17,431 nt of DNA from a bacterium. GTDB taxonomy: Bacteria; SAR324; NAC60-12. The stretch lies in assembly GCA_965233585.1 (NCBI GenBank), contig CBDDTI010000284.1, positions 1 through 17,431 on the forward strand. The letters run 5' to 3'. Each line of letters begins with the position of its first letter. The first letter of the stretch is position 1. The position numbers and the translations under genes are program-made. Below the pieces are notes generated by a model. The model saw nothing but the letters and a program-made list of their open reading frames with translations, ran no database searches and had not been told where the DNA came from. Below are positions 2 to 17,431 of this stretch, one piece after another.

Positions 2-235
2 ATGAAGTTCTTACGGCCTTGGATAGAAAAAAACTCATTCAAAACAATTCTGTCTTATTCCGTTCAGGATTTTCGTTCTTTGTTTTGCGGCTGGTACGTG
101 ACCGCTTTCTGTTTATCCGTGGGCAACAATTTAATGTCTCCTCAACAATTTGTTAAAATTTTTGTAAAAAAACCCAAAATAAAAAATGATGAAATTGTAA
201 CTCATTTTATAAAAAAACTTGAAAATAAACGATGA
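2..235 (+). CDS. Adenain-like (Polinton PRO) cysteine protease, C-terminal part, probably truncated by the window edge
   Basis: VQDFRSLFCGWYVTAF...F...F...ND fits the Q-x(5-6)-CG-x-Y/F catalytic Cys region and C-terminal ND motif of adenovirus/Polinton proteases; consistent context. Confidence 0.75.
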   Translation: MKFLRPWIEKNSFKTILSYSVQDFRSLFCGWYVTAFCLSVGNNLMSPQQFVKIFVKKPKIKNDEIVTHFIKKLENKR

Positions 236-252
236 CATATATTTTACTTTCA

Positions 253-1098
253 TTATAATTTCGGGTATTTTCCCGGAAAAAGTAATTTTTTTTTAACAGC
301 ATCTGCATCAGTTGTTGAAAGTTTTTTTGATTTAGATCTAGTTTGTACGGGAGAAATAGTAAAAGTTTTCTTTTTTGCACCTCCTGATCCTGTTTTGAGG
401 GATGACATTGAAGCCGAAGGCGATTTTGATGCTTGTGAAGAGACCGAGGCTATATCTTTACCAATTTTTTCTGTGTCAAATATGGACAATTCTTTCATAT
501 GATCTCTTACAAGGTGTTTGCCGAATTGCGCATCGTCAACATACTGCTTCCCGCATGCGGTAAAAGGACAAACTATTTTGCCGTCTGAATTTTTTTGTGT
601 CAATGCCTTTATAACAGGCGAATTTCGCCATTCTGGCACGTCAGGAGTTGAAGTATCGTCCTTGCTTTTTGGTCTTGAAGCGGTATAAAACAAGTCTGGA
701 TCGGGTTCCCTCTCCATAACGGGAGTAGTGGGCAAAAACTGAGCGGTATTTTCTTTTTGTTGGGGAGTTTGAGCGGTTGTTGATCTTGAAATAGATTGAT
801 ACGTACGACCCGTACTGCTATCGACTTGTACTGGCGGCATAACATTTGATATATTATCAGAACCAAAACGGTACAATTTATCACCGCTTTGATTCATTTT
901 TTGCCTGTCTTGTAAATTTTTAAAATTAATGGCATTTTCAATGTAATTAGACGTGTTTGGTTTTTCATTCATAGAAATAAGTTCTTTTTTTGTTTCATTA
1001 TCTTCTATATTTTTTATTAAAGAATGATATAGCCTTTTGGGGACTAAAAACATGGAGTATATTTCATCATTTGTTTTTCTTTTCACGCCTGAACTCAT
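253..1098 (-). CDS. Hypothetical 281-aa protein with one C2H2 zinc finger and S/T/K-rich low-complexity regions
   Basis: Intact ATG ORF; CPFTACGKQYVDDAQFGKHLVRDH is a C2H2 finger; starts 3 bp after the 1102..1476 stop. Confidence 0.75.
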   Translation of the reverse strand: MSSGVKRKTNDEIYSMFLVPKRLYHSLIKNIEDNETKKELISMNEKPNTSNYIENAINFKNLQDRQKMNQSGDKLYRFGSDNISNVMPPVQVDSSTGRTYQSISRSTTAQTPQQKENTAQFLPTTPVMEREPDPDLFYTASRPKSKDDTSTPDVPEWRNSPVIKALTQKNSDGKIVCPFTACGKQYVDDAQFGKHLVRDHMKELSIFDTEKIGKDIASVSSQASKSPSASMSSLKTGSGGAKKKTFTISPVQTRSKSKKLSTTDADAVKKKLLFPGKYPKL

Positions 1099-1101
1099 CC
1101 T

Positions 1102-1476
1102 TTAACGACGACGTTGTAGGCTCTTTTTTGCAATAATTTGAGCCAAAATAGGGACGATAATGCTGGCAATTGCCGATAAAGTTCCTAAAATTCCGCCCCT
1201 TTGTAGTATTGTTCTTTTTTTTGAAATGTCGGAAGAGCGACGAGGCGGCGTGGCAAGACGTCTGAACTCCCCTAAATGAGCTCTAATTTTTTTCTGAAGT
1301 CGTGTTCGCACTTCGCCATGTAAGGGCAATTCGCCGTTCAAAACGTAATGTAAAATACGACAAAGCAATTCAACGCCGCGATCGTCCAAATAATTTAAAA
1401 AATTAGCGCAATCTTTATGTTTTAATTTTTTTATTGCATTAAAAAGCGAATTAGCTTTTTCTAATTTTTTTGACAT
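1102..1476 (-). CDS. Small basic Polinton-type protein with QRGG motif and hydrophobic/amphipathic C-terminal helix (putative virion protein)
   Basis: Pattern ...VLNGELPL...RRLA...KKRTILQRGGILGTL...IVPIL resembles small ORFs found beside Polinton ATPases (recognised by eye). Confidence 0.7.
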   Translation of the reverse strand: MSKKLEKANSLFNAIKKLKHKDCANFLNYLDDRGVELLCRILHYVLNGELPLHGEVRTRLQKKIRAHLGEFRRLATPPRRSSDISKKRTILQRGGILGTLSAIASIIVPILAQIIAKKSLQRRR

Positions 1477-1522
1477 TTTAACAGTAATTATTTTTAATTT
1501 TTCTTAAATAGATATGAAATTT

Positions 1523-2218
1523 TTAAACAGTAACGTAGGCTTTCATTAATCCTTCATAAGGAAAGATGTTACTTCGAATTCTGACTTTATCGTCTTGCTG
1601 TTGATGAAAATCTAGAAGAAGATATCCGTGACTTCGACCGTTAACTGCTTCTCTATACGCTTTATTTAAGATTCCAACACGACCGGGAAAAATTTGTTTT
1701 GCCAAATGTGTGACGGCGCTTCTGTCCCGCGGATTGTTAAAAAGGATCATGTATTGCGTATTTATGCTTAATGTCCGTAAATCGCCTTTTTTGTCAAATA
1801 AATTTTGACAAAGAAAAATGGTGAAACAATTGTAATGATGGGTCAAAACCGTAAAAAAATGTTTTAATATTTGCCCAACATCGTCTAAATAATCGTCAAA
1901 AACAATCAATTTGGGCATTTTTCTCGGATATAATTCTAAAATATCTTTCAACTCTTCAATTGAATTTGGAATATTTTTGAATTTACGAAAAGACGGAAAT
2001 TGTGTGTCAGAACCTCTGCCCTCGTTCATGTCGTCTTCCATGTACTGATATGCTTTTTGCGGTTCCTTGTAAAACAACAACATTGTTTCAGGCGGAGTTG
2101 CAAAATATTCGTGCCGACGAAGCACTAAATGTTTTAGCCACGTTGTTTTTCCGCTTGATGTTGGACCAACAACCAACATGTTGGACGGAATATTAAACCT
2201 CAAATCAAAACCGTTCAT
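1523..2218 (-). CDS. A32/FtsK-HerA-like genome packaging ATPase
   Basis: Walker A GPTSSGKT, Walker B LIVFDD, then THHYNCFTIFLCQNLF and RTLSINTQYMILFNNPRD, typical of Polinton ATPases. Confidence 0.93.
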   Translation of the reverse strand: MNGFDLRFNIPSNMLVVGPTSSGKTTWLKHLVLRRHEYFATPPETMLLFYKEPQKAYQYMEDDMNEGRGSDTQFPSFRKFKNIPNSIEELKDILELYPRKMPKLIVFDDYLDDVGQILKHFFTVLTHHYNCFTIFLCQNLFDKKGDLRTLSINTQYMILFNNPRDRSAVTHLAKQIFPGRVGILNKAYREAVNGRSHGYLLLDFHQQQDDKVRIRSNIFPYEGLMKAYVTV

Positions 2219-2284
2219 TTTATTAATTTTAAAAAAGAAATTACAAAATTTTCTTTTAAATAAAAGTAATGATTTAATTATTTT

Positions 2285-5200
2285 TTATTTACAAATTTGA
2301 CATTTAGACATTTTGTTGTTAACAATAAGACTATTTCCTAACGATAAAGTGTGACATCCGCAATTTAAAACATATCTTTTGGAATCCATTGCCGACAACG
2401 CAATTTTTCTTTGAAAACACGTCCGGATTTTGTGATTCTTTGATCTTAAATTTTTAAAAGATTTGTAAATTACAACAGTTTGCTTTAAGCACTTTTTGTA
2501 ATCTGCATAAGTTAATTGCTTTTTTATACTAGATTTTTTTAAACCTTTGCATACTTTTTTCTCATCAGTTTTGTTTTTGTCCAAAAAATCGACTATTTTC
2601 ATGGAATAACATTTTGGACGTAAGCCTATAAAATCAGTAATAGCCGCTCTACCTTTTAATTCGTCTTTGAAATAAAAAAGTTGATTGGCTTTACTGTCGT
2701 CAAAAAGTGGATGTTGTTTAGGGTACTTTGAAAAATCAAACATGTGTTTCAATCTCTCCATTTCCCTTTCCAAATTGTTGCATTTAACTTTTAAAAGAAA
2801 AGAATCCGTGTCCGAAAAACACAAAGATACATTGTCTTTGCCGAAATGTTTTTGAATGGTGTCATAGTATGATCTGTACATAAACAACTTGGACAACTCT
2901 AGAATGGAAAATCCGACGGCTAAAGGCTTTCTAAGTTCTATCATTGCCGGCTTCTTGTTGACAGCCACCAAATTCTCATTAATGATTTGAAAATTGTTGA
3001 TGTGTTGACCAAGACTGGCTTTCCTCAGACTTTTTTCATCTCCACAAAGGACCACTTCGATGTAATTTCGAACATTTTCTAAAAATATAAAATAAAATAA
3101 ATATTCTATAAAAAATTCAACATTTTTATAAAAATTCATTATTAAGTGTGTAGGAGTTTAGAGATTTGTTTTTTAAAAACTTCCCAAAACCATGTGGTAA
3201 TTTTCAAAACAAACTTGAAGCAGAAGGAGGAGGAGGAAGAAGAAAAAGGAAAATGATGATGATGGAGATGAGGAGGGGGTACAGGAGGTTAAAGGAGGAA
3301 AGGGAGGAAGATGAAGAGCCGCTTTTAACAGCGAAGAAGAAGGAGGAGGTGGAGGAGAAGAGGAAGAACCGGAGACCGGGCCTGATCCGGCGGATCCGGT
3401 CGGCCGTGGCCGACATTTTTGATGCTCCGCCGTCCGCTGCCGCCTCCGCCACCGCCAGCGCCGCTGCTGTTGCACTCTCTGTTGGCGTTGCTGTGCTCGC
3501 CGCCAACGGTGCTGGCGGCGGCGGAGGCGGCAGTGGTCGCGCTGTCCGAGGCCTTCAAAACGAAAATTTTATTGAATTTGACGTGCCCACCGACATTCTT
3601 GTCGACCTCCCCACCAACGCCCCCACCGAGTCCCCCATCGAGATGCTCATTGAGGTCCCCACCGCCGAAATTCCCTCTAACGTCCCCACCGAGGCGCTTA
3701 TCGAAGCTACCACCGAATCCCCCATCGAGATGCTCATCGAAGCCCCCACCGACGAAATTCCCTCCAACGTTCCCACCGAAATGCTAATCGAGGTCCCCGT
3801 CCCCACCAAGATGCTCATCAAAGCCCCCACCGCTGAAATTCCCTCCAACGTCCCCACCGAGGTGCTAATCGAGGTCTCCGTCCCCACCGAGGCGCCCATC
3901 GAGGCCCCCACCGAGTTCCCCGCCGAGGCGTTTATCGAGTTCCCCATCGAAATCCCTACTGACGACCCCATCGAGGCTCCCATCCCCTTTAGACTCCCCG
4001 CCGACGACAGATCTATTGCCGCCAGACGTCGGGCAACGGAGATTGTCCGCCTGGCTAAAATCCGGGCAGCGGAAAACCGGATGGCGGATTTCAGCGGGGA
4101 GGTTATCACCGTGGAGGCCGAGATCCACGCGCCCCCCGACAACAACGAAGATGCGGATGAGCGTGTGGTGTGTACTGCCAACACATTCTGCACGAAATAT
4201 TGGCAGTACCACCGCACGCTTGTGCAAATATAAAAATATAAAAAAGATTTTAAATCTGAGTATTTACTTACCGATAAACTTTCCAAAAGTAGAGTTGGCA
4301 AAAAGCTTAAAAAGTCGAAGTTCAAAATCGTTGCGGGCGTTTGATCGTAGCATCGTGACCTTTTCAATAAACTCCTTCAAAAAAGCTTTTTGCCGAAACT
4401 TTACGGCTCTTCTTATCCTCAACAGCTTCATGCCTTTTTTCAAGTAGTATTGTAGATTTTCCAGATGCACCACGTACTTTTTTCGATCATAAAAAGTGCT
4501 CAACAGTTTCTTGCTTCGGTATCTTTTGTTCTTATAATCTCGAGGGTTGAGATGTTTTAGTAAACGGCGATTATAAGGAGACAGATGTTTGTAAGAAACC
4601 GTGTCTGTATACGGAGCCAGCGGAAATTGATCATGTGTCTGTAAATATTTTACCGTTTATCAAAAAATGCAAAAAACGTGTTAAAAAGATCAGATTTACC
4701 GGGTGAAGATGAGAAGGATAATGCAAATCAACTTCAAATGCGTACCCGGTCTCGTCTTGAGAAGGAATCTTGATAATATCTTTGGCAGTCCATTTTTCAA
4801 GATCTTTTTTTGCAACCCACTCGAAATCAGAAACTGGCAATTTTAAAGTTTCCATGCTCCCGTACAAGTTGTTTGCTAAAAAGTCACCGATTTTAAATAA
4901 ATAGATTAATCAAACGATGCAGTATAAAATTACCGTCAATGTAAAGTAAATGATCGCCGCTTTTTCTCGGATTGCTGTTTCCTTTTGCATAACGCTGAGA
5001 GATAAAGCTTTGTCCGCCTCTGATACCCTTTGTAAAAAACTGCTCCATTTCAGGATCGGAATAGATATCCAGAGATCCTGGAGGTTTGGAAGATTCACCC
5101 GCGAGGTTATCTTTTGTTGTTGTAGCTCGTTCAGAGTTTTGATAAAACATAAGCATAACATCAAAACTTAGTCCAGGAATTCCTAAAATTATACGAAATA

Positions 5201-7061
5201 AATTTTATATTCAAACTTTATATGTCAAGCAACAGAAAAGGAAATTTACCTAAGTAATAGATCGGATCCAATTGAAAGTGTTCCATAACCATTTTCCTGT
5301 ATTGAAGAAACGCTTCACATAGCAGGATGACATCCAAAGAACAATAAAGCATCATGTAATCCGCCACATTCTTGCACTTGAACAGTTTGAAGACTTCTTG
5401 CGCATGAGAATAATCCGTTTCCGAGATGTGTTCTTCATTCAATTCGGAATAAAAAGCATCTTTGGTTGGGAGGTTTCGACTTTTTTTCATTTCTTGTAAT
5501 GATTGAAAATGCTCGTAACAAAAAATGCCTTTTCTTTTTAAAAGTTTAAAAGCTTTTGATTTTTGACGGATAGGAATTTTTTGAAATCTTTTCATCTGTT
5601 GTAAAATAGGGAAAGAAAAGTTTGAAGTTTGATTCAAATCTTGGACAAGAGCGTCTAAGCTGGCAGATATGTGCTCTAATGAATCTTGGATTTTAAATTT
5701 GCCCAATGTAAGAGTGCGAAACTTTTCACTGTTTCTAGCCAAGACTTCCGGCATTCTCTTGAATCGGCGAATGTTTAACTCTTCTATGATTAAATGCAAA
5801 TCGTATCTGAAACATTCAATTTGTTAAAAAATTAATTAAAAATAAAGTTAATAAAAAATTTTTACCCTTGAGCGTTGTGGAAAAAAATTGGCGTGTGATA
5901 GGGTCCGGATCTTGTCAAATTACACAGCGAATGAGCCGCACCCATTATTTTTCCTGTGACATGATCGTGATCCAAAACTTTTCTATACTTTTTAGGATGG
6001 GTAGCAAATCGAAGACCGCATATATGACAAACGGTTGCTTTTCGAAACATTTGCCATTCCTCATGGGTGGCTTGAGTTTTGAGAACATCTCTAAATTTTT
6101 GTTTTCTTTCTTCAACCACTTTTTCGTAAAGAGGTATCCGATCCAAAAAACGTTTGGCCGCATCCTCTCCTAAATATTCTTCTTGAAAGAATACTTCATT
6201 TTCGGAGTCCACAAAAATCAGGCTGTAGCCTACCGGTCTATGCACATTTATATCGTCACTTGTGGGAAAAGCACACAAGCATTCCAATTTAGAACAAAGT
6301 CGACATTTAGATCGTTCCTTGTTTCTTTGAAGCACACTTTCAAAATCACAAAATCCCACAACAGGTGCTTTAAACTTATGTTTGTGGTTAGAAAAACTTA
6401 TAGCGGCATTTTTGCCGGGATAGATGGTGCGTTGCTTATCGTAGCAAATCCGCTCATGCTTTTCTTTCTTGGATTTTGATCGGAAACGCAGCAGACATTT
6501 TTCACAGTGAATGTACTTCTGTTGACCCGCTTTGTTAAACGACAACAGTCCGGCCCGATTATTCAAAAAACCTTGGAGTTTTGTAATTTTAAAGAAATGA
6601 TGCTGTTGATTTAAATCTTTGATTTTTTTAGGAAACTTGGAAGGAAAACTCGATTTTTTGGGGCGGGAATTACTCGAAGTTTTATCGGAAGAGATTTTAG
6701 GATCATGTTTTATCATTAACAAATGGAGAGTATTTTCTCTTATATCATTGTTTTTGTTAGTAATAAACCCTAAATTTGAAACGTGACCTTCACTCTCATA
6801 AAGTACGGAAATTGAAATTGGTAAATGACGATTTCTACACAAAAATTTTTTTATGTCACAAAATTGAAGAGGAAACGTAAAACCTTTTATGTTAAATTTT
6901 TTAAGATATTTTATTGGCATTTGACGAAAATCTGTAATGGAAGCAATTTCTGGAAAAAGATGTCTAATGTACAGATAAAGAAAGTTGAATTTATCATATC
7001 GAGTATTCCATTCCAAGCAGTTAGATCTTTTTATATCTCGTGTAATTTCTATAAAATCCAT
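2285..7061 (-). CDS. polB: Protein-primed family B DNA polymerase (pPolB), spliced; exons 7061-5866, 5806-5250, 5182-4934, 4875-4700, 4638-4272, 3078-2285; 1112 aa
   Basis: Exons total 3339 nt and all splice phases agree. Motifs: ExoI FCDFES, EndoVII-like CHICG...DHDH...GAAHSLCN, ExoII HNAQGYD, ExoIII YCSLDVILL, IRGG, motif A YIDANNLYG, motif B KLFANSTFGK, motif C SDTDS, LRPKCY, KG. Confidence 0.93.
3253..4233 (+). CDS. Nested intronic gene: 326-aa protein with charged N-terminus, Ala/Val hydrophobic segment, Gly linker and P-T/I-E repeat stalk
   Basis: Uninterrupted GC-rich ORF (first in-frame ATG at 3253; frame open from 3166) lying wholly inside pPolB intron 5 on the opposite strand. TATAAAAA-like boxes at ~3107 and ~3127. 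Confidence 0.72.
   Translation: MMMMEMRRGYRRLKEEREEDEEPLLTAKKKEEVEEKRKNRRPGLIRRIRSAVADIFDAPPSAAASATASAAAVALSVGVAVLAANGAGGGGGGSGRAVRGLQNENFIEFDVPTDILVDLPTNAPTESPIEMLIEVPTAEIPSNVPTEALIEATTESPIEMLIEAPTDEIPSNVPTEMLIEVPVPTKMLIKAPTAEIPSNVPTEVLIEVSVPTEAPIEAPTEFPAEAFIEFPIEIPTDDPIEAPIPFRLPADDRSIAARRRATEIVRLAKIRAAENRMADFSGEVITVEAEIHAPPDNNEDADERVVCTANTFCTKYWQYHRTLVQI
3623..3975 (+). repeat. Coding tandem repeats (units of ~87 nt, PIEMLIExPTxEIPSNVPTE, built from short PTE/PIE motifs)
   Basis: Near-identical blocks start at 3634 and 3721 (87 nt apart), with a further copy near 3811. Confidence 0.85.
4639..4699 (-). other. Spliceosomal intron 4 of pPolB (61 nt)
   Basis: GTAAAT...TTACAG; removal restores YPSHLHP|THDQFPLAP. 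Confidence 0.9.
4876..4933 (-). other. Spliceosomal intron 3 of pPolB (58 nt)
   Basis: GTAATT...TTTTAG; removal restores motif A YID|ANNLYG. Confidence 0.93.
5183..5249 (-). other. Spliceosomal intron 2 of pPolB (67 nt)
   Basis: GTAAAT...TTTTAG; removal restores LDPIYYLG|IPGLSFDVML. Confidence 0.92.
5807..5865 (-). other. Spliceosomal intron 1 of pPolB (59 nt)
   Basis: GTAAAA...TTTCAG; removal restores HNAQG|YDLHLII. Confidence 0.92.
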
Positions 7062-7111
7062 TTCCAAAGCTTACTTGAATTTTTCATATACAACAAAATA
7101 AGTCCTTAAAA

Positions 7112-7873
7112 TCAAATATTGGTAATTTGGATGTCGCTAAAAGACAGAGATTCGAATCTCCATCCGGAACCTCTCATCAACAAATCCTCTTCTCGAGTTA
7201 TTAAATTGTTCAATAATTTTTGAACTTTACCTTTTAACGAGCGAGAAGAATCAAAAGACGTGAATTGAATATAGCCGGTTCTTAAAGCAAAGACATCTCG
7301 ATCGCTAGGCATTAATTCATGTGACGACTGATCAAAACTTTTTTCAGTTGAATCATCAATGTTGCTAACAACCGTTTGAGGCTGTGATGAAGTATTATCA
7401 ACAACAGCTTCCGTCTCAGTGTCTTTGTCTTTTGTAGCTGAATTCAAATCAGGAATCTGATACGCCGCTGATAAAATTAAAGCAACTTTTACTGTAAAGG
7501 TTTTACTTAATTCATGACGAATAACATCAACAATTTCTTGTCTATTTGTTCTATTAACAACAAAGGCGTGAAGCGTTTCTGTAGAAAATATATGTTTCCG
7601 AAAAATTTTGATTTTACCGTTTAAAGCAGATTTAAAAAGAGAGTAATTTAAGTCTTCTAAATGAGAGGAATCGATGTGAGAGACCAAATCATTTCTTGAT
7701 TTAAAGGAACTTAATTCATTCTTACAAAACGGGCACTGAAGCGATTGATTTAATGGAGTCCGATTTCGGAATTTTGACGATGTTTCACGATGACGAAACA
7801 ATTCATGTTTGTCTCGGGAAGATTTTCTAGTAAACGATTTTTGGCATTCGCGGCAGATGTAGGATTTTGGCAT
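7112..7873 (-). CDS. Putative stand-alone terminal protein (pPolB N-terminal region) with two N-terminal C2H2 zinc fingers
   Basis: CRECQKSF...KHELFRH and CPFC...SHIDSSH fingers. The C-terminal EEDLLMRGSGWRFESL matches the GSGW motif of the N-terminal (terminal protein) region of Polinton pPolBs. Ends 50 bp before the polymerase ATG. Confidence 0.7.
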   Translation of the reverse strand: MPKSYICRECQKSFTRKSSRDKHELFRHRETSSKFRNRTPLNQSLQCPFCKNELSSFKSRNDLVSHIDSSHLEDLNYSLFKSALNGKIKIFRKHIFSTETLHAFVVNRTNRQEIVDVIRHELSKTFTVKVALILSAAYQIPDLNSATKDKDTETEAVVDNTSSQPQTVVSNIDDSTEKSFDQSSHELMPSDRDVFALRTGYIQFTSFDSSRSLKGKVQKLLNNLITREEDLLMRGSGWRFESLSFSDIQITNI

Positions 7874-7973
7874 TTCTGTTAAAATTCTGAAACAAAATTT
7901 ATTGACGCGTGAAATTTAGAAATAATATATACAAACACATTAAAACTATATAGCTCAGACTAATTAATACAAA

Positions 7974-8804
7974 TCATTCTTGTCTAAAATGACGCAACAA
8001 TCTTTGATATTGAGCACGTAAGCGTTCGCGTTCACGCTCAAGCGTTTGAATGCGTTGACGCAATACGTACTCAGCATAACGATTGAACAAATCATAAGGT
8101 GAGCCTCCTTCTACATCAATTAAATCAAGAATGAAAGAGGCTAAACGACCGTCACTCGATCTTTCTAAATTTGAGGGTGCAGGGAAATAATTTTCCTCTT
8201 CTATTTCTTCTTCTGCTGATCGAGTTGGACGTTGATAAGGAGAAGAATATCTTCCACCCCTACCAACACCGCGTCTGACCTCTCGTCCAATCGAGGCTGA
8301 AGTCGTTTGATTGAAGGGGCGAGAAATATTTTGACCCCGACCAACACCACGACCAGCGACCGAAGTACTCGAGGTGTTGCGCTCAGCAAAAATTCTTTGA
8401 GACATGGGACTCGATGTTGAATCATCGACAGCGTTGTTTGATGATGGCGATGTTAATTCATCGGCGGAGTTATTGGTCGATGTTAAATCATCGACTAAAT
8501 TGTTATTGATCCGAACCATAATTCCAAATCCTTCGGGGTTTACAACTATCGGTTCAGATACTCGACCCCGTTGATTAAACGAGGAAGATGTTGTTTGGCC
8601 CCGACCAACACCACGAGCGGGGAGAGAAGAACTTGGGCCATCATTTGACCTCAAATCTCCTCGACCTCGTCCAATCGGCACAACCGGTGGAGATGGCGGT
8701 GATGTTAAATCATCAGCGTTCCTTAGATGAAATCTTATTCTTAACCCTGCAGGGCCAAGAAAAACTTGGCGAGGGTTGTTTGAGTCATTTGGTAAATTAG
8801 ACAT
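7974..8804 (-). CDS. Hypothetical 276-aa disordered RG-rich protein with a C-terminal helical/coiled-coil segment
   Basis: Intact ATG ORF; repeated RGVGRG/GRGRG and DDLTS motifs; ends LRQRIQTLERERERLRAQYQRLL. Confidence 0.75.
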   Translation of the reverse strand: MSNLPNDSNNPRQVFLGPAGLRIRFHLRNADDLTSPPSPPVVPIGRGRGDLRSNDGPSSSLPARGVGRGQTTSSSFNQRGRVSEPIVVNPEGFGIMVRINNNLVDDLTSTNNSADELTSPSSNNAVDDSTSSPMSQRIFAERNTSSTSVAGRGVGRGQNISRPFNQTTSASIGREVRRGVGRGGRYSSPYQRPTRSAEEEIEEENYFPAPSNLERSSDGRLASFILDLIDVEGGSPYDLFNRYAEYVLRQRIQTLERERERLRAQYQRLLRHFRQE

Positions 8805-9560
8805 TTTAATTACCTTTGATAGCGAATGGCAGAAGATCTTCTTTCAACGAATGTTCAAACTTATAATGAATGAATTTGAAAATATGACCGCGTTTTTATA
8901 CAATTTTTGGTGGGAAATAGTTTGGCGCATTTACGAGCCAATTGCACGAGAAAAAATTAATGACAAATTAAGCACAAAAAATTAAAGATATCCACAGCAA
9001 ATTACAAATCTTGAGCATGAGAAACATTAAGTACTTAGAAAAATTAATGGTGATTTGATCGAGTTTTGACAAATATAATTTGTTACAAATATGAACTAGT
9101 TGAATGAGAAAAATTGATGGAAAATACACGCACACACACTCACACACACACCATGAGCACTCATTTTCCGTAATTTTCTTGAACCATTGTTTAATTCACA
9201 ATTTAACATGTTCAAAAACACAAATTATCCATAATTTCCTTGGGGCATTGTCTGTTAACGACTTGACGCGTTATAATTTAGGATGAACCAAAAACATTAA
9301 TAAGAATTGACCTCAAACGCGTTCAGCATCGTTAAAATTTACAACCATTAGCGCCATAGCTTATTTATGCTGTGTAACCAATTAAAATCGATGAAACTTA
9401 TCAGCTACTTGCCCGCGCATGTGGAATTGAGAGCCCCTTAGAACATTGCCATACTGACACTCCCTTAAACTCAAGAAGGTTTAAAAAGAACCTACATTCG
9501 ATGACAAACGTCAGTGCAGATTTATTGTCAGAATAAATCACCCGCATTTAAAGCAATAAA

Positions 9561-10778
<1,218 letters not shown>

Positions 10779-10882: not shown

Positions 10883-11905
10883 TTATACGGGAGTAGACAA
10901 ATTTAGCCTGGTAGAAAGAGAAGGGTCAACGGTTATTGAAGAATCCGCTGCAGGTTCCGTCCGAGGCATGTTGAATAACGGAGGAATCATGCTTGAAAAG
11001 TACGGTCGTCTATGATAAACCTAAAAAATAATTTATATATAATAAGCGATTTAAAAATAATAATAAATTTCCTACCGTATACTCGGTGTTGGTCGCTTTA
11101 TCTACTTTTTCGGGAATTGGCAAAAAAGTAGTTGCATCGGACGGCAACGCCGATGCAGTTGACTCAAACGGCAAAATTTCGACGCTTGATTCTTCCACAG
11201 CCTCGTCGTTTGCCGATGAATCTGCAGCAGCTTGTATTGAAATCATTTCAATAGGCTAAAAAAAAAAATAGAGTAGACAAAATATTTTATAAAATGCAAT
11301 AATCATACTTCGACATTAGACGGTTGTTGGTGGTGATGGCTCAGTCTTCTTAATTTGTACATTATTATGGCGAACGTTACAAAAATGAAGACGAACACCG
11401 ATCCGACAAATATCTTGAAGACATCTGAAAATAATGAGGTATTTGTATAAAATGTTGACTTGAAAGAAAATAATCAATACTTACTGTCAAAAATTGCGGA
11501 GTCAAAACCCGCAAAGGAGAAACTATTATGTATTGTTGATACATTAGGCGAAGCGGAAAAGGTCGGTGGATTAAAAGTGGTGGCAGAACCGGTGCTTGTT
11601 TCCAACACAGGCGCGGGTGAAGTGACAGTCGTGGTTGAGAGAGTAGAGCTCGTCAAAGTGGTAGCAACGGTAGTGGGCGGGACGGTGGTAGTACTGGTAG
11701 AAGTCGTGGTGCTTGAAGTGGAAGAGGCGGTTGTAGTGGTTGATGCAAAGTCAGTCGTAGGCGTGATGGTTGTTTCAGAAGAATTGGAAGATGCGACAAT
11801 TTTAGCGAGGAGATTTTTTAGTAAAGTGATGTCTTCCTCGCATGAAATTTTTTGTGCCAAATAAAAGGCCCAAATAACGAAGACGATGATAATGTTGAAG
11901 TTCAT
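10883..11905 (-). CDS. Spliced 284-aa type I membrane mucin-like protein (exons 11905-11485, 11424-11309, 11255-11076, 11020-10883)
   Basis: Introns of 60, 53 and 55 nt (GTAAGT..TTTCAG, GTATGA..TTTTAG, GTAGGA..TTTTAG) give 855 nt in frame. Signal peptide, S/T-rich ectodomain, TM IFVGSVFVFIFVTFAIIMY followed by KLRR, tail ending LSTPV. Confidence 0.87.
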
Positions 11906-12216
11906 TATGACGGAATTGGAAATTTACTTTAAAGTTTGAAATGTCCAAGAATTGAAAATGAAGTGAAGTATTTGAATCGCAAACTTGAAATTATTTATTT
12001 TCTATAATAAAAGCGGGCGGTCAAACACGCGAACATTTGTACATTTATTATAAATAAAGTTAGAAGTTGTTGTCTAAATTAAATAATAAGAACTTTTTTA
12101 TACAATAAAATGCTTTGAAAGATTCTTTATGAAGAACACTTCGCAAAGGGAGGGTTGAGCGAAATTTACGCAAAGAAACGGGAAAACTCACGCTGAGAAA
12201 GTAAAACACACCGCGC

Positions 12217-12778: not shown

Positions 12779-13292
12779 GAAGTTGCAGCAAATGTTTATA
12801 CAAAGACGTGTGATGTATTACTGAAATAGTTTATGACATAAAAATAATAAATTTTAAATTAAGCGCGCTCTTTTATTTTAAAATTAAGGATAATAGTCTG
12901 CTACTTAAAAATTAGACACAGCAGCAGAAAAATCATCCAAAAAATCAAAATAAAAACAAACGTGATTTTTTCTGTTAATAAATAATTGCGACATTTGGTT
13001 GAGTTGAGAATCTTTTCGTAAACACCGATAAACAATAACTGTTGAAAAGTTGAACATGTATATATTTTTGATAAAATTATCGAGCGGAAATTATTGTTTA
13101 TGACAATAGCTTTGGTGCGAGTTATGATTTGTTGACGCAAAACGAGTTGCGCTTTAATTTGTGTTTGTTTTGGAAAACGGAAATTCAAACATTGTCGTTC
13201 TCAGAACCTTTCTTCGCGCCCCCGAACTGATTCAAGACGTGGAAAGTGGGAAAAATTGAGGTTGCAAACGGCTTGCAATCGGCTTGCAACAG

Positions 13293-13550
13293 GCCGATTG
13301 CAGACGAAAACAAGCCGATTACAGGCTCGATTGAGCCTGTTGCAAGCCGATTGCAGACGAAAACAAGCCGATTGCAGGCTCGATTGAGCCTGTTGCAAGC
13401 CGATTGCAGACGAAAACAAGCCGATTACAGGCTCGATTGAGGTTGTTGCAAGCCGATTGCAGACGAAAACAAGCCGATTGCAGGCTCGATTGAGGTTGTT
13501 GCAAGCCGATTGCAGACGAAAACAAGCCGGTTGCAGACGATTACAAGCCG
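13293..13550. repeat. 53-bp tandem array (~4.5 copies) with internal hairpins
   Basis: Unit gccgattgcagacgaaaacaagccgattRcaggctcgattgagSYtgttgcaa starts at 13293, 13346, 13399, 13452 and 13505. An inverted partial copy lies at ~13275-13293. Confidence 0.95.
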
Positions 13551-13752
13551 ATTTCAGGTTGAAACAACCTTAATGTAGATGCCATCAAGGTGTTTTGAGA
13601 GCGCATCAAGATGGTTTTTATCGGTAAACGGATGGTTGAAAGACGGTTTCAGCCTGTTTTAAGGTGTTTTGAGAACGTTTTAAGGTGATTTTAGAGCGTA
13701 ACAAGCTCGAATGAGAGTGACAAGAAGCACTTCGCAGAAGATGTCAACAGGG
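13551..13752. repeat. Degenerate 10-11-bp periodic tract ending ...TGTCAACAGGG; candidate outer part of a terminal inverted repeat
   Basis: aaggtgttttgaga at 13587 and 13661, ttttaaggtg at 13657 and 13678; periodicity stops at the G-run at 13750-13754. Confidence 0.5.
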
Positions 13753-13790
13753 GGTCTTGGGGATCTTTTACATGTGACATGAATATCCTT

Positions 13791-14040
13791 TCAAGTCAAC
13801 TGACATCTTCACTAAATAAGCATTACATAAATTTCTTGAAGAGCTATTCATATTCATGATTTTTTTTCATTTTAAAAGATATTCAAGTCAAGTGACATCT
13901 TCACTAAATAAGCATTACATAAATTTCTTGAAGAGCTATTCATATTCATGATTTTTTTTCATTTTAAAAGATATTCATGTCAGCTGACATCTCAACTAAA
14001 TATGCACGGCATAAATTTTATGAAGATTCCTTCATATTTA
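13791..14040. repeat. 92-bp tandem repeat, two near-identical copies plus a diverged partial third
   Basis: tcaagtcaaStgacatcttcactaaataagc... at 13791 and 13883; diverged copy at 13975. Confidence 0.9.
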
Positions 14041-14591
14041 CGAAGAAATTATTTTCACATGTGCAAAAGAGCCCTTAAACTTTTGTGTCAGACATCCTTG
14101 TCACTCTATCAACCAGGAAAGTCATCTTGATCTTCTTGATCATGATAACAGCAGCCCTGTCAGTTCTCTGCATCTTGGGGTTGGAATTGATTTGAAGGAA
14201 GTTCTGGAGGAGAAAAGTGAAGGTCAGATTTTTTGCATTGATTTCTTGGGACATTCCCTGAAGCGAGCTCCAATAAGGTGCTCATGTCTTTCAGTGTGAT
14301 GACAGCTCATATCTGGCTGTAGTCTTGGCCTTACCCTGTAACGAGTATGTTGTGTTCTCAGTTGCAAGAATTACAGGAGTTGCCAACCTTTCCACCGAGT
14401 ATGTGGTCTATCAGATGGGCATAAGCTTCAACTTACCTGAAATCCCAAAGGCATTTCCCCATGAGAATGATCTTTTGGTATCCGCCTGGAACCTACCAGT
14501 AGTTGAACCCAGGTCCCAGATAATATAAAGCTGCCCTCTACCATTGAGCTATCCACACACATCCACCCCAGAAAAGGGGTAGCCCGGCCAG

Positions 14592-14671
14592 GTCCCCATC
14601 ACCTATGGTCCCTATTTAGTATTCATTATTATACTAAATAGAATAACATAGGGACGATCGGTGATGGGGAC
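14592..14671. repeat. 80-bp foldback (24-bp inverted arms), possible MITE remnant
   Basis: gtccccatcacctatggtccctat pairs with atagggacgatcggtgatggggac (2 mismatches); inner ctatttagtat/atactaaatag inverted repeat. Confidence 0.75.
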
Positions 14672-16143
14672 ATGCCAGGCTCCCAGGAAAGGCCTACAAA
14701 ACCTAATAGATATTTAAGGCAATAAAGCACTATGTTTCTTTGAAGAATTGATATCTGTTCGATGGCAAATGCACACTAAGAAATTAAACAATAGGCACGT
14801 AGCTGTTACTCTTTGCACAATACCACTTGAAGCTAGCCTCTTGTTGGCACAGCAATCCCCTTGATGAAAGTTCCTGTCTCAGCACAAATCAAGGTCATGT
14901 AATCCTCCTCTCCAAAGTCACCAAAGCGGTTGACATTCTAAGGGATCTACACCATGTAGTCTGAGAAGTTGGTCTTCTGGAGCCTCAGCTTCTTGCTCCC
15001 GGGACACACATATAACAAACACTCATCTGAGGTTCCATGGATACCAGGTCAGCTAATTCCCAAATCTCCACATTATCCCTATCTTCAGTCTTTTCCGAAA
15101 AACCCTCTTTGGTCTTGTCAATGAAGCTGGCATTCTTTATGCTGTCTACCTTGCATTTTTCTACATCCTAGACCAGGAAGTAAGTGCCGAAGAAGAACTG
15201 GGACTAGAAATTCCGGGAGATAGGGAGATCTATCTCTGGGGTCAATTTCAGTAGTGTGACCCTGATTGAGATCCTAAATTGGAAATTCCAGATTTTCCTG
15301 ATCTCTGGGAGTGTCCCAGAGCTGGAGGGGAATGGAGCTATCATATGTTGCTGTCCGGGTCCACAGTAACACCAACTGCTACAGCCCTGTCCTTGGAGCC
15401 CGCGGCAAACCCATGCTTAGGAACAAACTCACATATGTGGAAAATTTTCGAGATTGAATCGCTTCAATCTCGAAAATTATCCTTTACCAATCTTTCAGAA
15501 TGTTCTCTACCCAAATTCATGGATAACGGTTTTGGTGAATCGAATTGTTGTCCCTCAGGTGTGCCCAATTCTCTTGTTTATGGCATGCAGTTTTGTTGTC
15601 CAGTCGGGAATTGTCACCCCTGCCTGGACGGATTAGAAGTTTCGGTTACGACCCCCAGGAAAACTGCATCGTTATAAGGCAGATGTTTCCGTCGGACCGT
15701 TAGGTCGCGACATTTATCTCATTAAGAGATGAATAGTAAACGAGACTTTCCCCACCCCCAAAGGGTTGGAAACTGGAAACTGTTTGTGAGAAAACAATCA
15801 TAAAATGAGTTGTTTTGCCCCTCGAAATACCAGGTCTTTCGAGGGGTAACGGTTTCCGACTTGGCTTCTCTTTGGGGATGAGAACAAAATGCGCACTTGT
15901 ATTCTAGGAACCACGGTGATAACTGGTCCGAGGTTTTCACTCGTATATCCGACCTTAAAGTTTGTAATAACTCTAAACTATCTTGCTCTCGAAAATACAA
16001 GGCCGGCTCTGTTAAAAAGATCTCTGGTTATAGTCTCTTCAAATTTGGCTAGTTCTTGTTTGACTCCCTTCGGTCATTAAAGTGAAGGCTGTTTGATCGT
16101 CTGGTCCGCTTTGTCGAAGAAGCGTCCGCCAGACTTTTGACAT

Positions 16144-16164
16144 TGGTGCATCGTCCGGAAATCG
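16144..16164 (+). promoter_or_regulatory. Primer-binding site complementary to the 3' end of tRNA-Gly
   Basis: TGGTGCATCGTCCGGAAATCG versus the recalled reverse complement of invertebrate tRNA-Gly(GCC) plus CCA, TGGTGCATCGGCCGGGAATCG (2 mismatches). Confidence 0.75.
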
Positions 16165-16312
16165 CATAAACCTCCCGGACTACCAACGATGCTGAAGAGC
16201 TCAGGATCTAGAGTCGTTGTATATAGAGTGTACAGTAGTTAGTGTTAGTGATAAAACTTTTTATTTTTGTGTTAGTATTTTTACAGACAATCGAAACAAT
16301 CTTTATTACAAA

Positions 16313-17431
16313 ATGGATCAAAGACTTAAAGTAGCTGAAAATCAGGGTGAAGAAGACGCCAACATGGTCACCGCCGTGGAGGACACCCGGCTATTGGACA
16401 GAGATGTCACAATGGTCCGGGAGACCGAAACGCCATGACCAGCAACGGCCCCTACAGGAATCGCAAGACCGACGGTGAGGGACAGTCCAAGTCTGTCGGA
16501 ACAACATCTGCAACACCGACAACAGCCTCACTACTCTAGTCAAGGGTCAAACTCCGAGCGGGAAAGTGCGGACGAGGAACTTCAGACCGAAGTCAGGATC
16601 CGGCGAGCTATGGAAAGAAACGGTAGGTTGGTCGACCTCACCGAAAGAATGACAACAGAAAGGGACAAAGCGATGAGGAACCCAACACATTGGAATCGCT
16701 CGGTGTTGGAAGCTTTCGTCCTGGACAACGCCAACGCCTTGGTGAAGTCGGCCGCCGACCAAAGCGTCAATTTCAGGCTCGCAGGACCGGAACAGGAGGT
16801 GATTCTGTCACCCCTCCTCGACGACAGCCTCGCTCGCGAACGAATGATCCTGATGGCGCGGATGGATCAAAACATCAGGATATCCCAGGTAGTGCGAGTT
16901 TACTCAAGGGAGGACAAGGATTTGTATTACTTCATGGCCATGGAAGCGGGGATGGAGATGCTAAAACGCAGGGAGTACCGGATTGACGACTGGTACCGGA
17001 GGAGGACTGAGACGTGGGGAACACTCGACACGTTCCTTGATCAGCTCAGAGAATCCATGACCCTAGCCGGAGGCAACCCCGAACAACTCCAAAGGTTCAT
17101 GACGAGGTATACAGGTCTGGCCAGAACCCTCTTCTTCGAAGGAGTAATTTCGTGCATCTTGGCGGTCCTTGGACATCCCGGTAACTTCGAACATTTCGTC
17201 CGGGACCGAGAGATAAAACTGATGGAGTCACCGCACGCACCCGTCCGCGTCATGCTACAGTGTGTGGAGCTGATGCATCAGGCTGGACTGCACGTCCCTC
17301 TACTCCACCGGGACTACTTTCTTCGCGCAAGGGACCAGGCACGTTATCTCGCGGAGCGGAAGACGTTGGCCAACAAGGTCTTGGAACAAGAGAGACAGAG
17401 AGAGGAGCAGAGGGAACGTCAAATTACCACC
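16313..17431 (+). pseudogene. Gag-position ORF of the retrotransposon with one in-frame TGA (16436-16438); runs off the window
   Basis: The frame from ATG 16313 stays open for 331 codons after the TGA to the window end (MDQRLKV...ETP*PATAPTG...EQRERQITT). The downstream part is absent from the ORF track because it has no stop. No diagnostic Gag motif seen. Confidence 0.55.

Follow-up and report, generated by a model that had tools for sequence, protein, structure and literature searches.

A GC-rich open reading frame nested antisense in a long intron of a putative Maverick/Polinton-like DNA polymerase gene

We analysed a stretch of 17,431 nucleotides (nt) from positions 1 to 17,431 of contig CBDDTI010000284.1 (GenBank assembly GCA_965233585.1; GTDB lineage Bacteria; SAR324; NAC60-12), which is called the window below. 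It holds part of an element for which Maverick/Polinton-like is a reasonable, though not proven, label. Within this element lies a gene split over six minus-strand exons which, by its residue motifs and its relatives, is a protein-primed family B DNA polymerase (pPolB, Pfam: PF03175). The intron between exons 5 and 6 is 1193 nt long, and nearly all of it is taken up by one open reading frame (ORF) on the opposite strand, much richer in GC than the element around it. We consider it fairly probable that the intron is real and that the nested ORF is an acquired cargo gene, which is functional or at least was so formerly.

Exon structure of the polymerase gene

The exons and introns of pPolB, with boundaries read directly from the sequence, are as follows.

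7061-5866, minus strand: pPolB exon 1
5865-5807, minus strand: short pPolB intron, 59 nt
5806-5250, minus strand: pPolB exon 2
5249-5183, minus strand: short pPolB intron, 67 nt
5182-4934, minus strand: pPolB exon 3
4933-4876, minus strand: short pPolB intron, 58 nt
4875-4700, minus strand: pPolB exon 4
4699-4639, minus strand: short pPolB intron, 61 nt
4638-4272, minus strand: pPolB exon 5, final residues KLFANSTFGKFI
3079-4271, minus strand: pPolB intron 5, 1193 nt, phase 1, GTAAGT...TTTTTAG
3078-2288, stop at 2285-2287, minus strand: pPolB exon 6 (the last), contains CFSDTDS

Exon 5 ends with NSTFGKFI and a G at 4272, and the GTAAGT donor follows at 4271-4266. The frame picks up at 3078 after TATATTTTTAG, with the AG of the acceptor at 3080-3079. 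The split codon G-AA encodes the Glu at the exon 5/6 join, followed by NVRNY. The original prediction, made from the letters of the sequence, had placed a 1193-nt intron with a GTAAGT donor and a T-rich acceptor at exactly these boundaries. The splice sites of this intron resemble those of the four short pPolB introns, which have the donors GTAAAA, GTAAAT, GTAATT and GTAAAT, the acceptors TTTCAG, TTTTAG, TTTTAG and TTACAG, and a GC content of 0.12-0.25. The prediction also counted ten other introns of 52-67 nt. Four were confirmed, all within pPolB, and five further candidates of 51-61 nt elsewhere in the window come from a pattern scan only. One of these five, at 1986-1936, sits within a continuous ORF and is probably false.

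Joined by script, the six exons give 3336 nt, or 1112 codons with zero stops. The strings FFHNAQG-YD, YIDANNLYG, KLFANSTFGK and FSDTDS are present in the translation; we take KLFANSTFGKFI at the end of exon 5 to be polymerase motif B and CFSDTDS in exon 6 to be motif C. Single exons of the window stay below the threshold of PF03175 (the best is exon 2, E = 0.17) because they are too short and too divergent. The family is reached by relatives such as P0045 (E = 5.8e-23), P0048 (E = 1e-11) and P0116, which is 93% identical to exon 5 (E = 5.9e-6). In P0126, a relative without an intron at the exon 5/6 site, the match to PF03175 (E = 2.3e-6) is unbroken over profile positions 303-435 and across the junction. 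A search with exon 6 returned 106 longer relatives, many of which carry PF03175 and PF02945.

To these 106 relatives we aligned exons 5 and 6 by local blastp. Both exons aligned in 105 of them; the sole miss is P0010, which starts inside exon 6 and has an unrelated C-terminal half. In 92 of the 105 relatives the end of exon 5 and the start of exon 6 are separated by exactly one residue, that of the split Glu codon; the remaining gaps are 3 (7 cases), 2 (2 cases), 5, 7, 11 and -10. With this distribution of gaps the exon 5/6 join is more than chance. The frame is colinear with the relatives across exons 5 and 6, so pPolB is readable only with the 1193 nt removed. These results support the view that the 1193 nt behave as a GT-AG (U2-type) spliceosomal-type intron of the pPolB gene, and the pPolB pre-mRNA would be spliced across them.

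Two other kinds of insert were considered. An intein or a read-through was ruled out, as the polymerase frame meets stops inside the insert. A group I or group II intron with a homing endonuclease was rejected on the GT-AG boundaries, the lack of an Rfam match and the lack of an endonuclease match for the nested ORF. No Rfam family at gathering score and no tRNA was found anywhere in the window.

The polymerase has a long N-terminal extension. In the exon 1 ORF (5865-7070, minus strand), residues 335-386 match Endonuclease_7, an HNH-type domain (E = 1.8e-5, 25.0 bits, cutoff 23.6). The extension also has C2H2-like zinc ribbons, and PF02945 is common to many relatives. A section of a pan-eukaryote Polinton survey treats HNH domains for one class of Polinton polymerases (PMC10748475). 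The closest long exon 6 relative, P0010 (64% identity), has an unrelated 250-amino-acid (aa) region after the polymerase end. By eye this region presumably resembles a retrotransposon gag, which suggests a second element next to or within that sister copy.

The same codon in related polymerases

A search with the exon 5 ORF gave 43 relatives of 71-228 aa, which were sorted by the residues after FGKFI. Nine end before the site, 23 run into an intron and soon stop, such that the intron length is not readable, and two have a frameshift in exon 5 and likewise run on into the intron. In six relatives, with 66-72% identity in exon 5, the ORF spans the complete intron at this codon and enters exon 6 in the wrong frame. 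Their introns measure 104 nt (P0124), 77 nt (P0131), 71 nt (P0133), 74 nt (P0135), 73 nt (P0136) and 70 nt (P0147). The last three relatives (P0126, P0142 and P0156; 72-81% identical) continue from FGKFI to ENV uninterrupted and have no intron there. The short empty intron that the original prediction proposed to look for at this codon is thus present in six relatives. Since a short intron occurs here in relatives, the intron is older than the GC-rich cassette inside it, which supports an insertion of the cassette into a pre-existing short intron.

Intron presence varies within this polymerase family, as the three relatives without the exon 5/6 intron show. P0135 reads across the exon 4/5 junction without the 61-nt intron found in the window at 4639-4699, yet has the 74-nt intron at the exon 5/6 site.

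Composition and margins of the nested ORF

The nested ORF and the features inside and around it are listed below.

3253-4233, plus strand: nested ORF (P0001), 326 aa, intronless, wholly inside intron 3079-4271
3079-3252, plus strand: 5' margin of the nested ORF, 174 nt, GC 0.24; on the minus strand the pyrimidine-rich 3' end of the intron
3107-3115 and 3127-3134, plus strand: TATA-like strings, read from the sequence
3080-3092 and 4231-4243, plus strand: 13-nt direct repeat, right copy includes the stop of the nested ORF
3448-3504, plus strand: Ala/Val-rich hydrophobic segment, residues 66-84, possible membrane anchor
3633-3913, plus strand: tandem repeats in the nested ORF, 81-nt period, 3.4 copies, 84% matches
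4234-4271, plus strand: 3' margin of the nested ORF, 38 nt, GC 0.16, up to pPolB exon 5
4366-4371, plus strand: first canonical AATAAA downstream of the nested ORF, inside antisense pPolB exon 5

The ORF begins at the first of four ATGs at 3253 and ends with the TAA at 4231-4233. That it fills almost the whole intron on the opposite strand can be read directly from the sequence, as the original prediction had it. The window is AT-rich, with a GC content of about 0.25-0.40 over most of the first 8 kb. Windows of 300 nt that start at 3151-3901 have a GC content of 0.50-0.62 and those just outside 0.25-0.39; at a resolution of 40 nt the GC-rich stretch reaches from about 3281 to 4160. The predicted contrast in composition was clear, with 0.60 in the nested ORF against 0.24 and 0.16 in its margins.

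GC at the first, second and third codon positions (GC1, GC2 and GC3) is 0.62, 0.46 and 0.72 in the nested ORF, and the GC3 of five element genes is 0.28-0.34. The relative synonymous codon usage (RSCU) of the nested ORF correlates with that of these five genes at -0.22 to -0.31, and that of the five genes among themselves at 0.51-0.74. Between the nested ORF and a GC-rich ORF at the right end of the window the correlation is +0.25. Of the proposal that a gene of different origin was inserted here, the foreign codon usage is seen in GC3 and RSCU, and the insertion event itself is likely.

TATA-like boxes upstream of the ORF had also been named in the original prediction, and the AT-rich 5' margin that holds the two strings may act as a promoter. 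The AATAAA at 4366-4371 may serve as a poly(A) signal. The 13-nt direct repeat has a length that was reached in 5 of 2000 mononucleotide shuffles, and if its two copies were collapsed into one, an intron of 42 nt (GTAAGT...TTTTAG) would be left. The repeat may mark the insertion, but as the margins are of low complexity we place no weight on it. Inverted matches between the cassette margins reach at most 9 nt, and no second copy of the cassette was found in the window.

The nested ORF also contains an inverted repeat (3431-3466 and 3504-3539) of 36 nt and 86% complementarity, with a GCC-type Ala arm and a GGC-type Gly arm. The two arms could pair into a strong hairpin, in the DNA or in its RNA.

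Relatives of the nested ORF

Seven relatives (P0003-P0009), 43-86% identical to the nested protein and on contigs of 8-37 kb, came from a word-indexed search. A profile search against 1.84 billion representatives gave 428 matches at E <= 1e-3. Among the best 150 of these 428, nearly all best stretches lie in the repeat block, at profile positions of about 100-235. Four of the profile matches were inspected. P0186 and P0241 are true relatives, which makes nine in all, and P0159 and P0168 are unrelated repeat proteins. The nine relatives share the N-terminal start region and/or the C-terminal end of the nested ORF.

Of these nine, three look intact: P0006 has an open frame from the Met cluster through to the stop shared with the window, P0005 reaches that stop too but has a shorter N-terminus, and P0241 is a divergent short variant in which both ends are kept and the middle is different. 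Where aligned, P0005 is 63% and P0006 61% identical to the window protein. In a rough simulation with 20% random uniform substitution and no indels, which corresponds to 61% amino-acid identity, the nested ORF stayed open in 0.95% of 2000 trials. This favours selection on the nested ORF, as far as such a simple model goes. GC3 exceeds GC1 and GC1 exceeds GC2 in three of the four sections of the ORF (N-terminal, repeat and C-terminal), the exception being the Ala/Gly block.

In a tblastn of the nine relatives against the window, the alignment covers 3560-4444 for P0008 and 3238-4341 for P0007. Both extend over the 38-nt margin (4234-4271) into antisense exon 5; thus the cassette stands at the same position in at least two sister copies. 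P0007 also aligns to 3192-3344 in another frame, so the 5' margin is conserved in a sister copy.

Features of the nested protein

From the N-terminus, the nested protein has a charged region, a basic stretch, the Ala/Val-rich segment, a Gly run, acidic repeats and a C-terminal part. The Kyte-Doolittle maximum over 19 residues is 1.99 in the window protein and 1.85-2.12 in five relatives; six of seven members therefore fall within 1.85-2.12, with a stretch of charge +3 directly upstream of the hydrophobic segment. AlphaFold2 places a helix at residues 60-86 with low confidence. Besides the 81-nt period, repeat periods of 12 and 36 nt occur, up to 3982, and the units encode acidic Pro/Thr/Glu/Ile. 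Residues 101-245 have a net charge of -28. The repeat block differs in length among the relatives, and repeats make up about 45% of the ORF. The non-repeat C-terminus of about 80 aa, with two cysteines, is the best-conserved part.

The one Pfam match was to a PT repeat and stayed below threshold (E = 0.0053, 16.7 bits, cutoff 26.2), and PDB sequences gave nothing below E = 0.25. A bacterial or archaeal origin was looked for in 185,579 species genomes, where 156 places fitted a peptide pattern and none was confirmed by tblastn. The nested protein is lineage-restricted and mostly disordered. Our best guess, held with far less confidence than the reading as a cargo gene, is a mucin-like surface protein with a signal anchor, belonging either to the element or to its host cell.

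The window has another ORF of similar look at 11474-11923 (minus strand), with a hydrophobic N-terminus, a long Thr/Ser-rich run and the appearance of a secreted mucin, in a patch of GC 0.43-0.49. A candidate 60-nt intron (11484-11425) lies at this ORF. It is possibly a second low-complexity, surface-related gene of the element.

Layout of the element

Six co-oriented minus-strand genes with spacers of 3-100 nt occupy 8843-253, and the nested ORF is the sole plus-strand gene between these positions. Because the genes are so tightly packed, the intron is one of few places that could take 1.1 kb without damage to a gene. The layout of 253-8843 looks operon-like, and trans-splicing would be a guess. 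The ORFs 1102-1503 and 253-1101 (both minus strand) are in the same frame with one stop between them, and the next ATG comes 3 nt later. The ATG of ORF 7112-7915 (minus strand) has a TTTCAG 13 nt ahead of it.

Beside pPolB, ORF 1523-2284 (minus strand) has sub-threshold matches to Pox_A32 (E = 0.0027, 17.7 bits, cutoff 22.8) and FtsK_SpoIIIE (E = 0.0053) and contains the P-loop string GPTSSGKT. The fragment 2-235 (plus strand) has no Pfam match at E <= 0.05; by eye it looks protease-like, and it may be of the adenain-like cysteine protease kind. The original prediction called the element a Polinton. In favour of this name are the pPolB gene and the weak packaging-ATPase match. No rve integrase was found among the 22 ORFs scanned against Pfam; the window is cut at its left end inside the element, and an integrase may lie beyond that cut. 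No capsid family appeared in the Pfam and PHROGs scans of the window ORFs, to which no remote-homology or fold searches were added. No terminal repeats were found in the window, and at most one end of the element lies inside it.

Two tandem arrays (13237-13575 and 13790-14065) stand at the border between the AT-rich gene block and GC-richer DNA. One has six copies, 53 nt apart, with 21-nt perfect inverted repeats, and the other repeats a 92-nt unit about 2.6 times. Together they may represent the element's subterminal region. The right end of the window (14100-17431) is GC-richer, at 0.43-0.56, and contains ORF 16439-17431 (plus strand), which is open at the window end, with 331 codons, a GC3 of 0.64 and no Pfam, PHROGs or Atlas match. 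This end could represent flanking host DNA, a different element or a GC-rich cargo region of the kind described for nematode Mavericks. Further, a run of 15 (ATG/GAT)n units at 9999-10044 (plus strand) encodes poly-Asp in the very acidic ORF 9791-10333, which a candidate 57-nt intron (10319-10375) joins to ORF 10376-10624.

Possible explanations

Our favoured explanation starts from a Maverick/Polinton-like integrated element whose genes, unusually, carry short introns. In this sub-lineage a GC-rich cassette of about 1.15 kb with foreign codon usage would have landed in a formerly short intron, and would have brought a gene without introns, on the opposite strand, together with AT-rich margins of its own on both sides. 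The polymerase would be unharmed because the intron is spliced from its mRNA, and the nested gene would since have been carried along with the element as cargo. Its transcription may start from its own upstream margin and end in or past the 38-nt margin, which would give an antisense overlap with exon 5. As an interpretation the original prediction is partly supported: the results agree with it for the intron, the ancestral short intron and the foreign codon usage, and only in part for an intact ORF in relatives.

Several observations weigh against this explanation. An intron of 1193 nt in a gene with other introns of 58-67 nt might splice poorly, and the closest exon 5 relatives (P0116-P0118, 87-93% identical) start their intron differently, with the tail GKF where the window has GK. 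The stop of the nested ORF is only 38 nt from exon 5, and the first AATAAA is already within that exon. Six of the nine relatives (P0003, P0004, P0007, P0008, P0009 and P0186) look frameshifted; the original prediction had named a nested ORF that is untranscribed and frameshifted in sister copies as a sign against it, and the frameshift part of this appears in these six and not in the other three. The length of the ORF is by itself a weak argument for a gene, because other frames of the GC-rich block are almost free of stops as well; one on the minus strand has a single stop and 225 open codons. Between the three 81-nt repeat copies, synonymous to non-synonymous changes stand at 7:5, 5:7 and 2:6, with no synonymous excess. 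The predicted structure has a mean pLDDT (AlphaFold2's per-residue confidence) of 36.3 when the whole protein is modelled from a 3-sequence alignment and of 53.0 for its C-terminal 84 aa from an 8-sequence alignment, and the protein has no match in Pfam, PHROGs, PDB or the ESM Atlas. Moreover, P0241 lacks the hydrophobic segment, with a hydropathy maximum of 1.04.

Much the same observations would suit a passenger, that is GC-rich host or other repeat DNA, expanded like a minisatellite, without function and tolerated because it is spliced out. Its ORF would be open since GC-rich DNA has few stops and since the copies are recently related, and the frameshifts, the second open frame, the repeats of variable length that fill nearly half of the ORF, the lack of a synonymous excess, the low structural confidence and the missing family match all agree with this. 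We nevertheless regard a passenger as unlikely. P0005 and P0006 keep the start region and the exact stop at 61-63% identity, at which so few simulated ORFs stayed open, the non-repeat C-terminal 80 aa are the best conserved, P0241 replaces the middle and keeps both ends, and in three sections (N-terminal, repeat and C-terminal) GC peaks at the third codon position. Another possibility is that the intron is too long to be spliced in a host with introns of about 60 nt, so that the copies are non-autonomous relics which use the polymerase of others. The length of the intron beside the other four and the decay of many family members are consistent with it. We hold it to be quite unlikely, as no exon is broken across the 1112 codons, the splice sites are consensus-like and the exon 5 ORFs of P0116-P0118 are intact up to the donor site. 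Besides, the arrangement persists while the nested proteins have diverged to 43-65% identity, which is hard to square with immediate death of the lineage.

The intron could also have been made or filled by an introner-like or other mobile element, with the ORF as its own gene. Introners populate Maverick-Polinton-like elements of dinoflagellates, according to a part of PMC11957031, and the cassette is flanked by a direct repeat of a length that few shuffles reach. No terminal inverted repeat was found, however, beyond the 9-nt inverted match, and the relatives with a short intron at the codon indicate that the intron predates the cassette. With no transposase-like or other family match and no second copy in the window, we give this origin very little credence. 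That unrelated GC-rich DNA was joined into the polymerase gene as an assembly chimera would explain the abrupt change of composition at both edges. It is extremely improbable, as two independent contigs (those of P0007 and P0008) run from the nested gene into antisense exon 5, and the break falls exactly at consensus splice sites, at a codon which has an intron in relatives.

The cargo reading, to which we return, can be taken further. The nested ORF might be a working accessory gene for a signal-anchored, mucin-like surface protein, carried on an enveloped particle or used to modify the host cell surface, and its head-on placement might itself be functional. The 3' end of its transcript would need to extend into antisense exon 5. 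Transcription of the cargo and of the polymerase would then exclude each other, or form double-stranded RNA, as a switch between a quiescent state with cargo expression and a replicating state. We think it improbable that all of this holds.

Comparison with known systems

Mavericks/Polintons are commonly taken to lack introns. Intact vertebrate Mavericks have none, as stated in a part of PMC8097293. A large survey of integrated viruses in protists used a prokaryotic gene finder, with the reason given in a passage of PMC10120064 that such elements 'do not contain introns', and the Polinton survey already cited, in the portion concerned, demanded pPolB ORFs of at least 900 aa (PMC10748475). Such pipelines would fail to pick up a lineage with a six-exon polymerase, or would class it as degraded, and its cargo would be overlooked. 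If the favoured explanation is true, there would be a second route of gene uptake, with the intron of an essential gene as a safe harbour in a packed genome. The pair of genes would also be a natural sense/antisense pair for the study of transcriptional interference in a mobile element. The gain, loss and growth of introns could be studied in a small natural series, made up of relatives that have no intron, a short one or a filled one at the same codon.

In eukaryotic nested genes, a full transcription unit lies in the intron of another gene, often on the opposite strand, and transcriptional interference is possible. Unlike in chromosomal nested genes, the host gene here is the replication polymerase of a compact, mobile and virus-like element with spacers of 3-100 nt, where theirs are large genes with long introns. 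Adenovirus, a relative of Polintons, has the E2B genes for the polymerase and the terminal protein opposite the major late unit, within its leader introns. Both layouts have a gene of one strand within an intron of a unit on the other strand, and both involve a protein-primed polymerase; in adenovirus the polymerase lies in the intron, whereas here the polymerase owns it. The nested ORF showed no relationship in sequence to adenovirus proteins. Homing-endonuclease ORFs of group I introns, as well as inteins, are known as extra ORFs in viral family B polymerase genes which are removed at the RNA or protein level. In contrast to these, the insert described here has GT-AG boundaries, a frame that is not continuous with the polymerase, an ORF on the opposite strand and no endonuclease match.

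With the introners of dinoflagellates, as they appear in a part of PMC11957031, the nested ORF shares that foreign DNA within genes of Polinton-like elements is tolerated through splicing. Introners are short, non-coding and intron-creating transposons (PMC11957031), whereas in our case the intron pre-exists in relatives and the insert has a 326-codon ORF and no detectable terminal inverted repeats.

Nematode Mavericks carry GC-rich cargo, such as wasp proteases and krma kinases, between the terminal repeat and the integrase, as laid out in a portion of Widen et al. (10.1101/2022.07.12.499685). There the cargo is seen as host-derived and exchanged between species, and Mavericks as vectors of horizontal gene transfer in nematodes (10.1101/2022.07.12.499685). 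In the full-text literature searched, which covers few subscription journals, we found no account of a gene nested in an intron of a Polinton/Maverick polymerase. The element described here would likewise have non-core cargo, in a nested ORF which stands out by its high GC content. Going by the same portion of that work, the nematode cargo genes have introns and lie between the terminal repeat and the integrase, whereas the cargo here is intronless and antisense in a polymerase intron. Unlike the nematode cargo, the nested protein has no protease, kinase or ubiquitin-like domain by Pfam. The carriage of cargo itself is known, and what would be new is Maverick cargo at another location, the polymerase intron, in an intron-bearing lineage.

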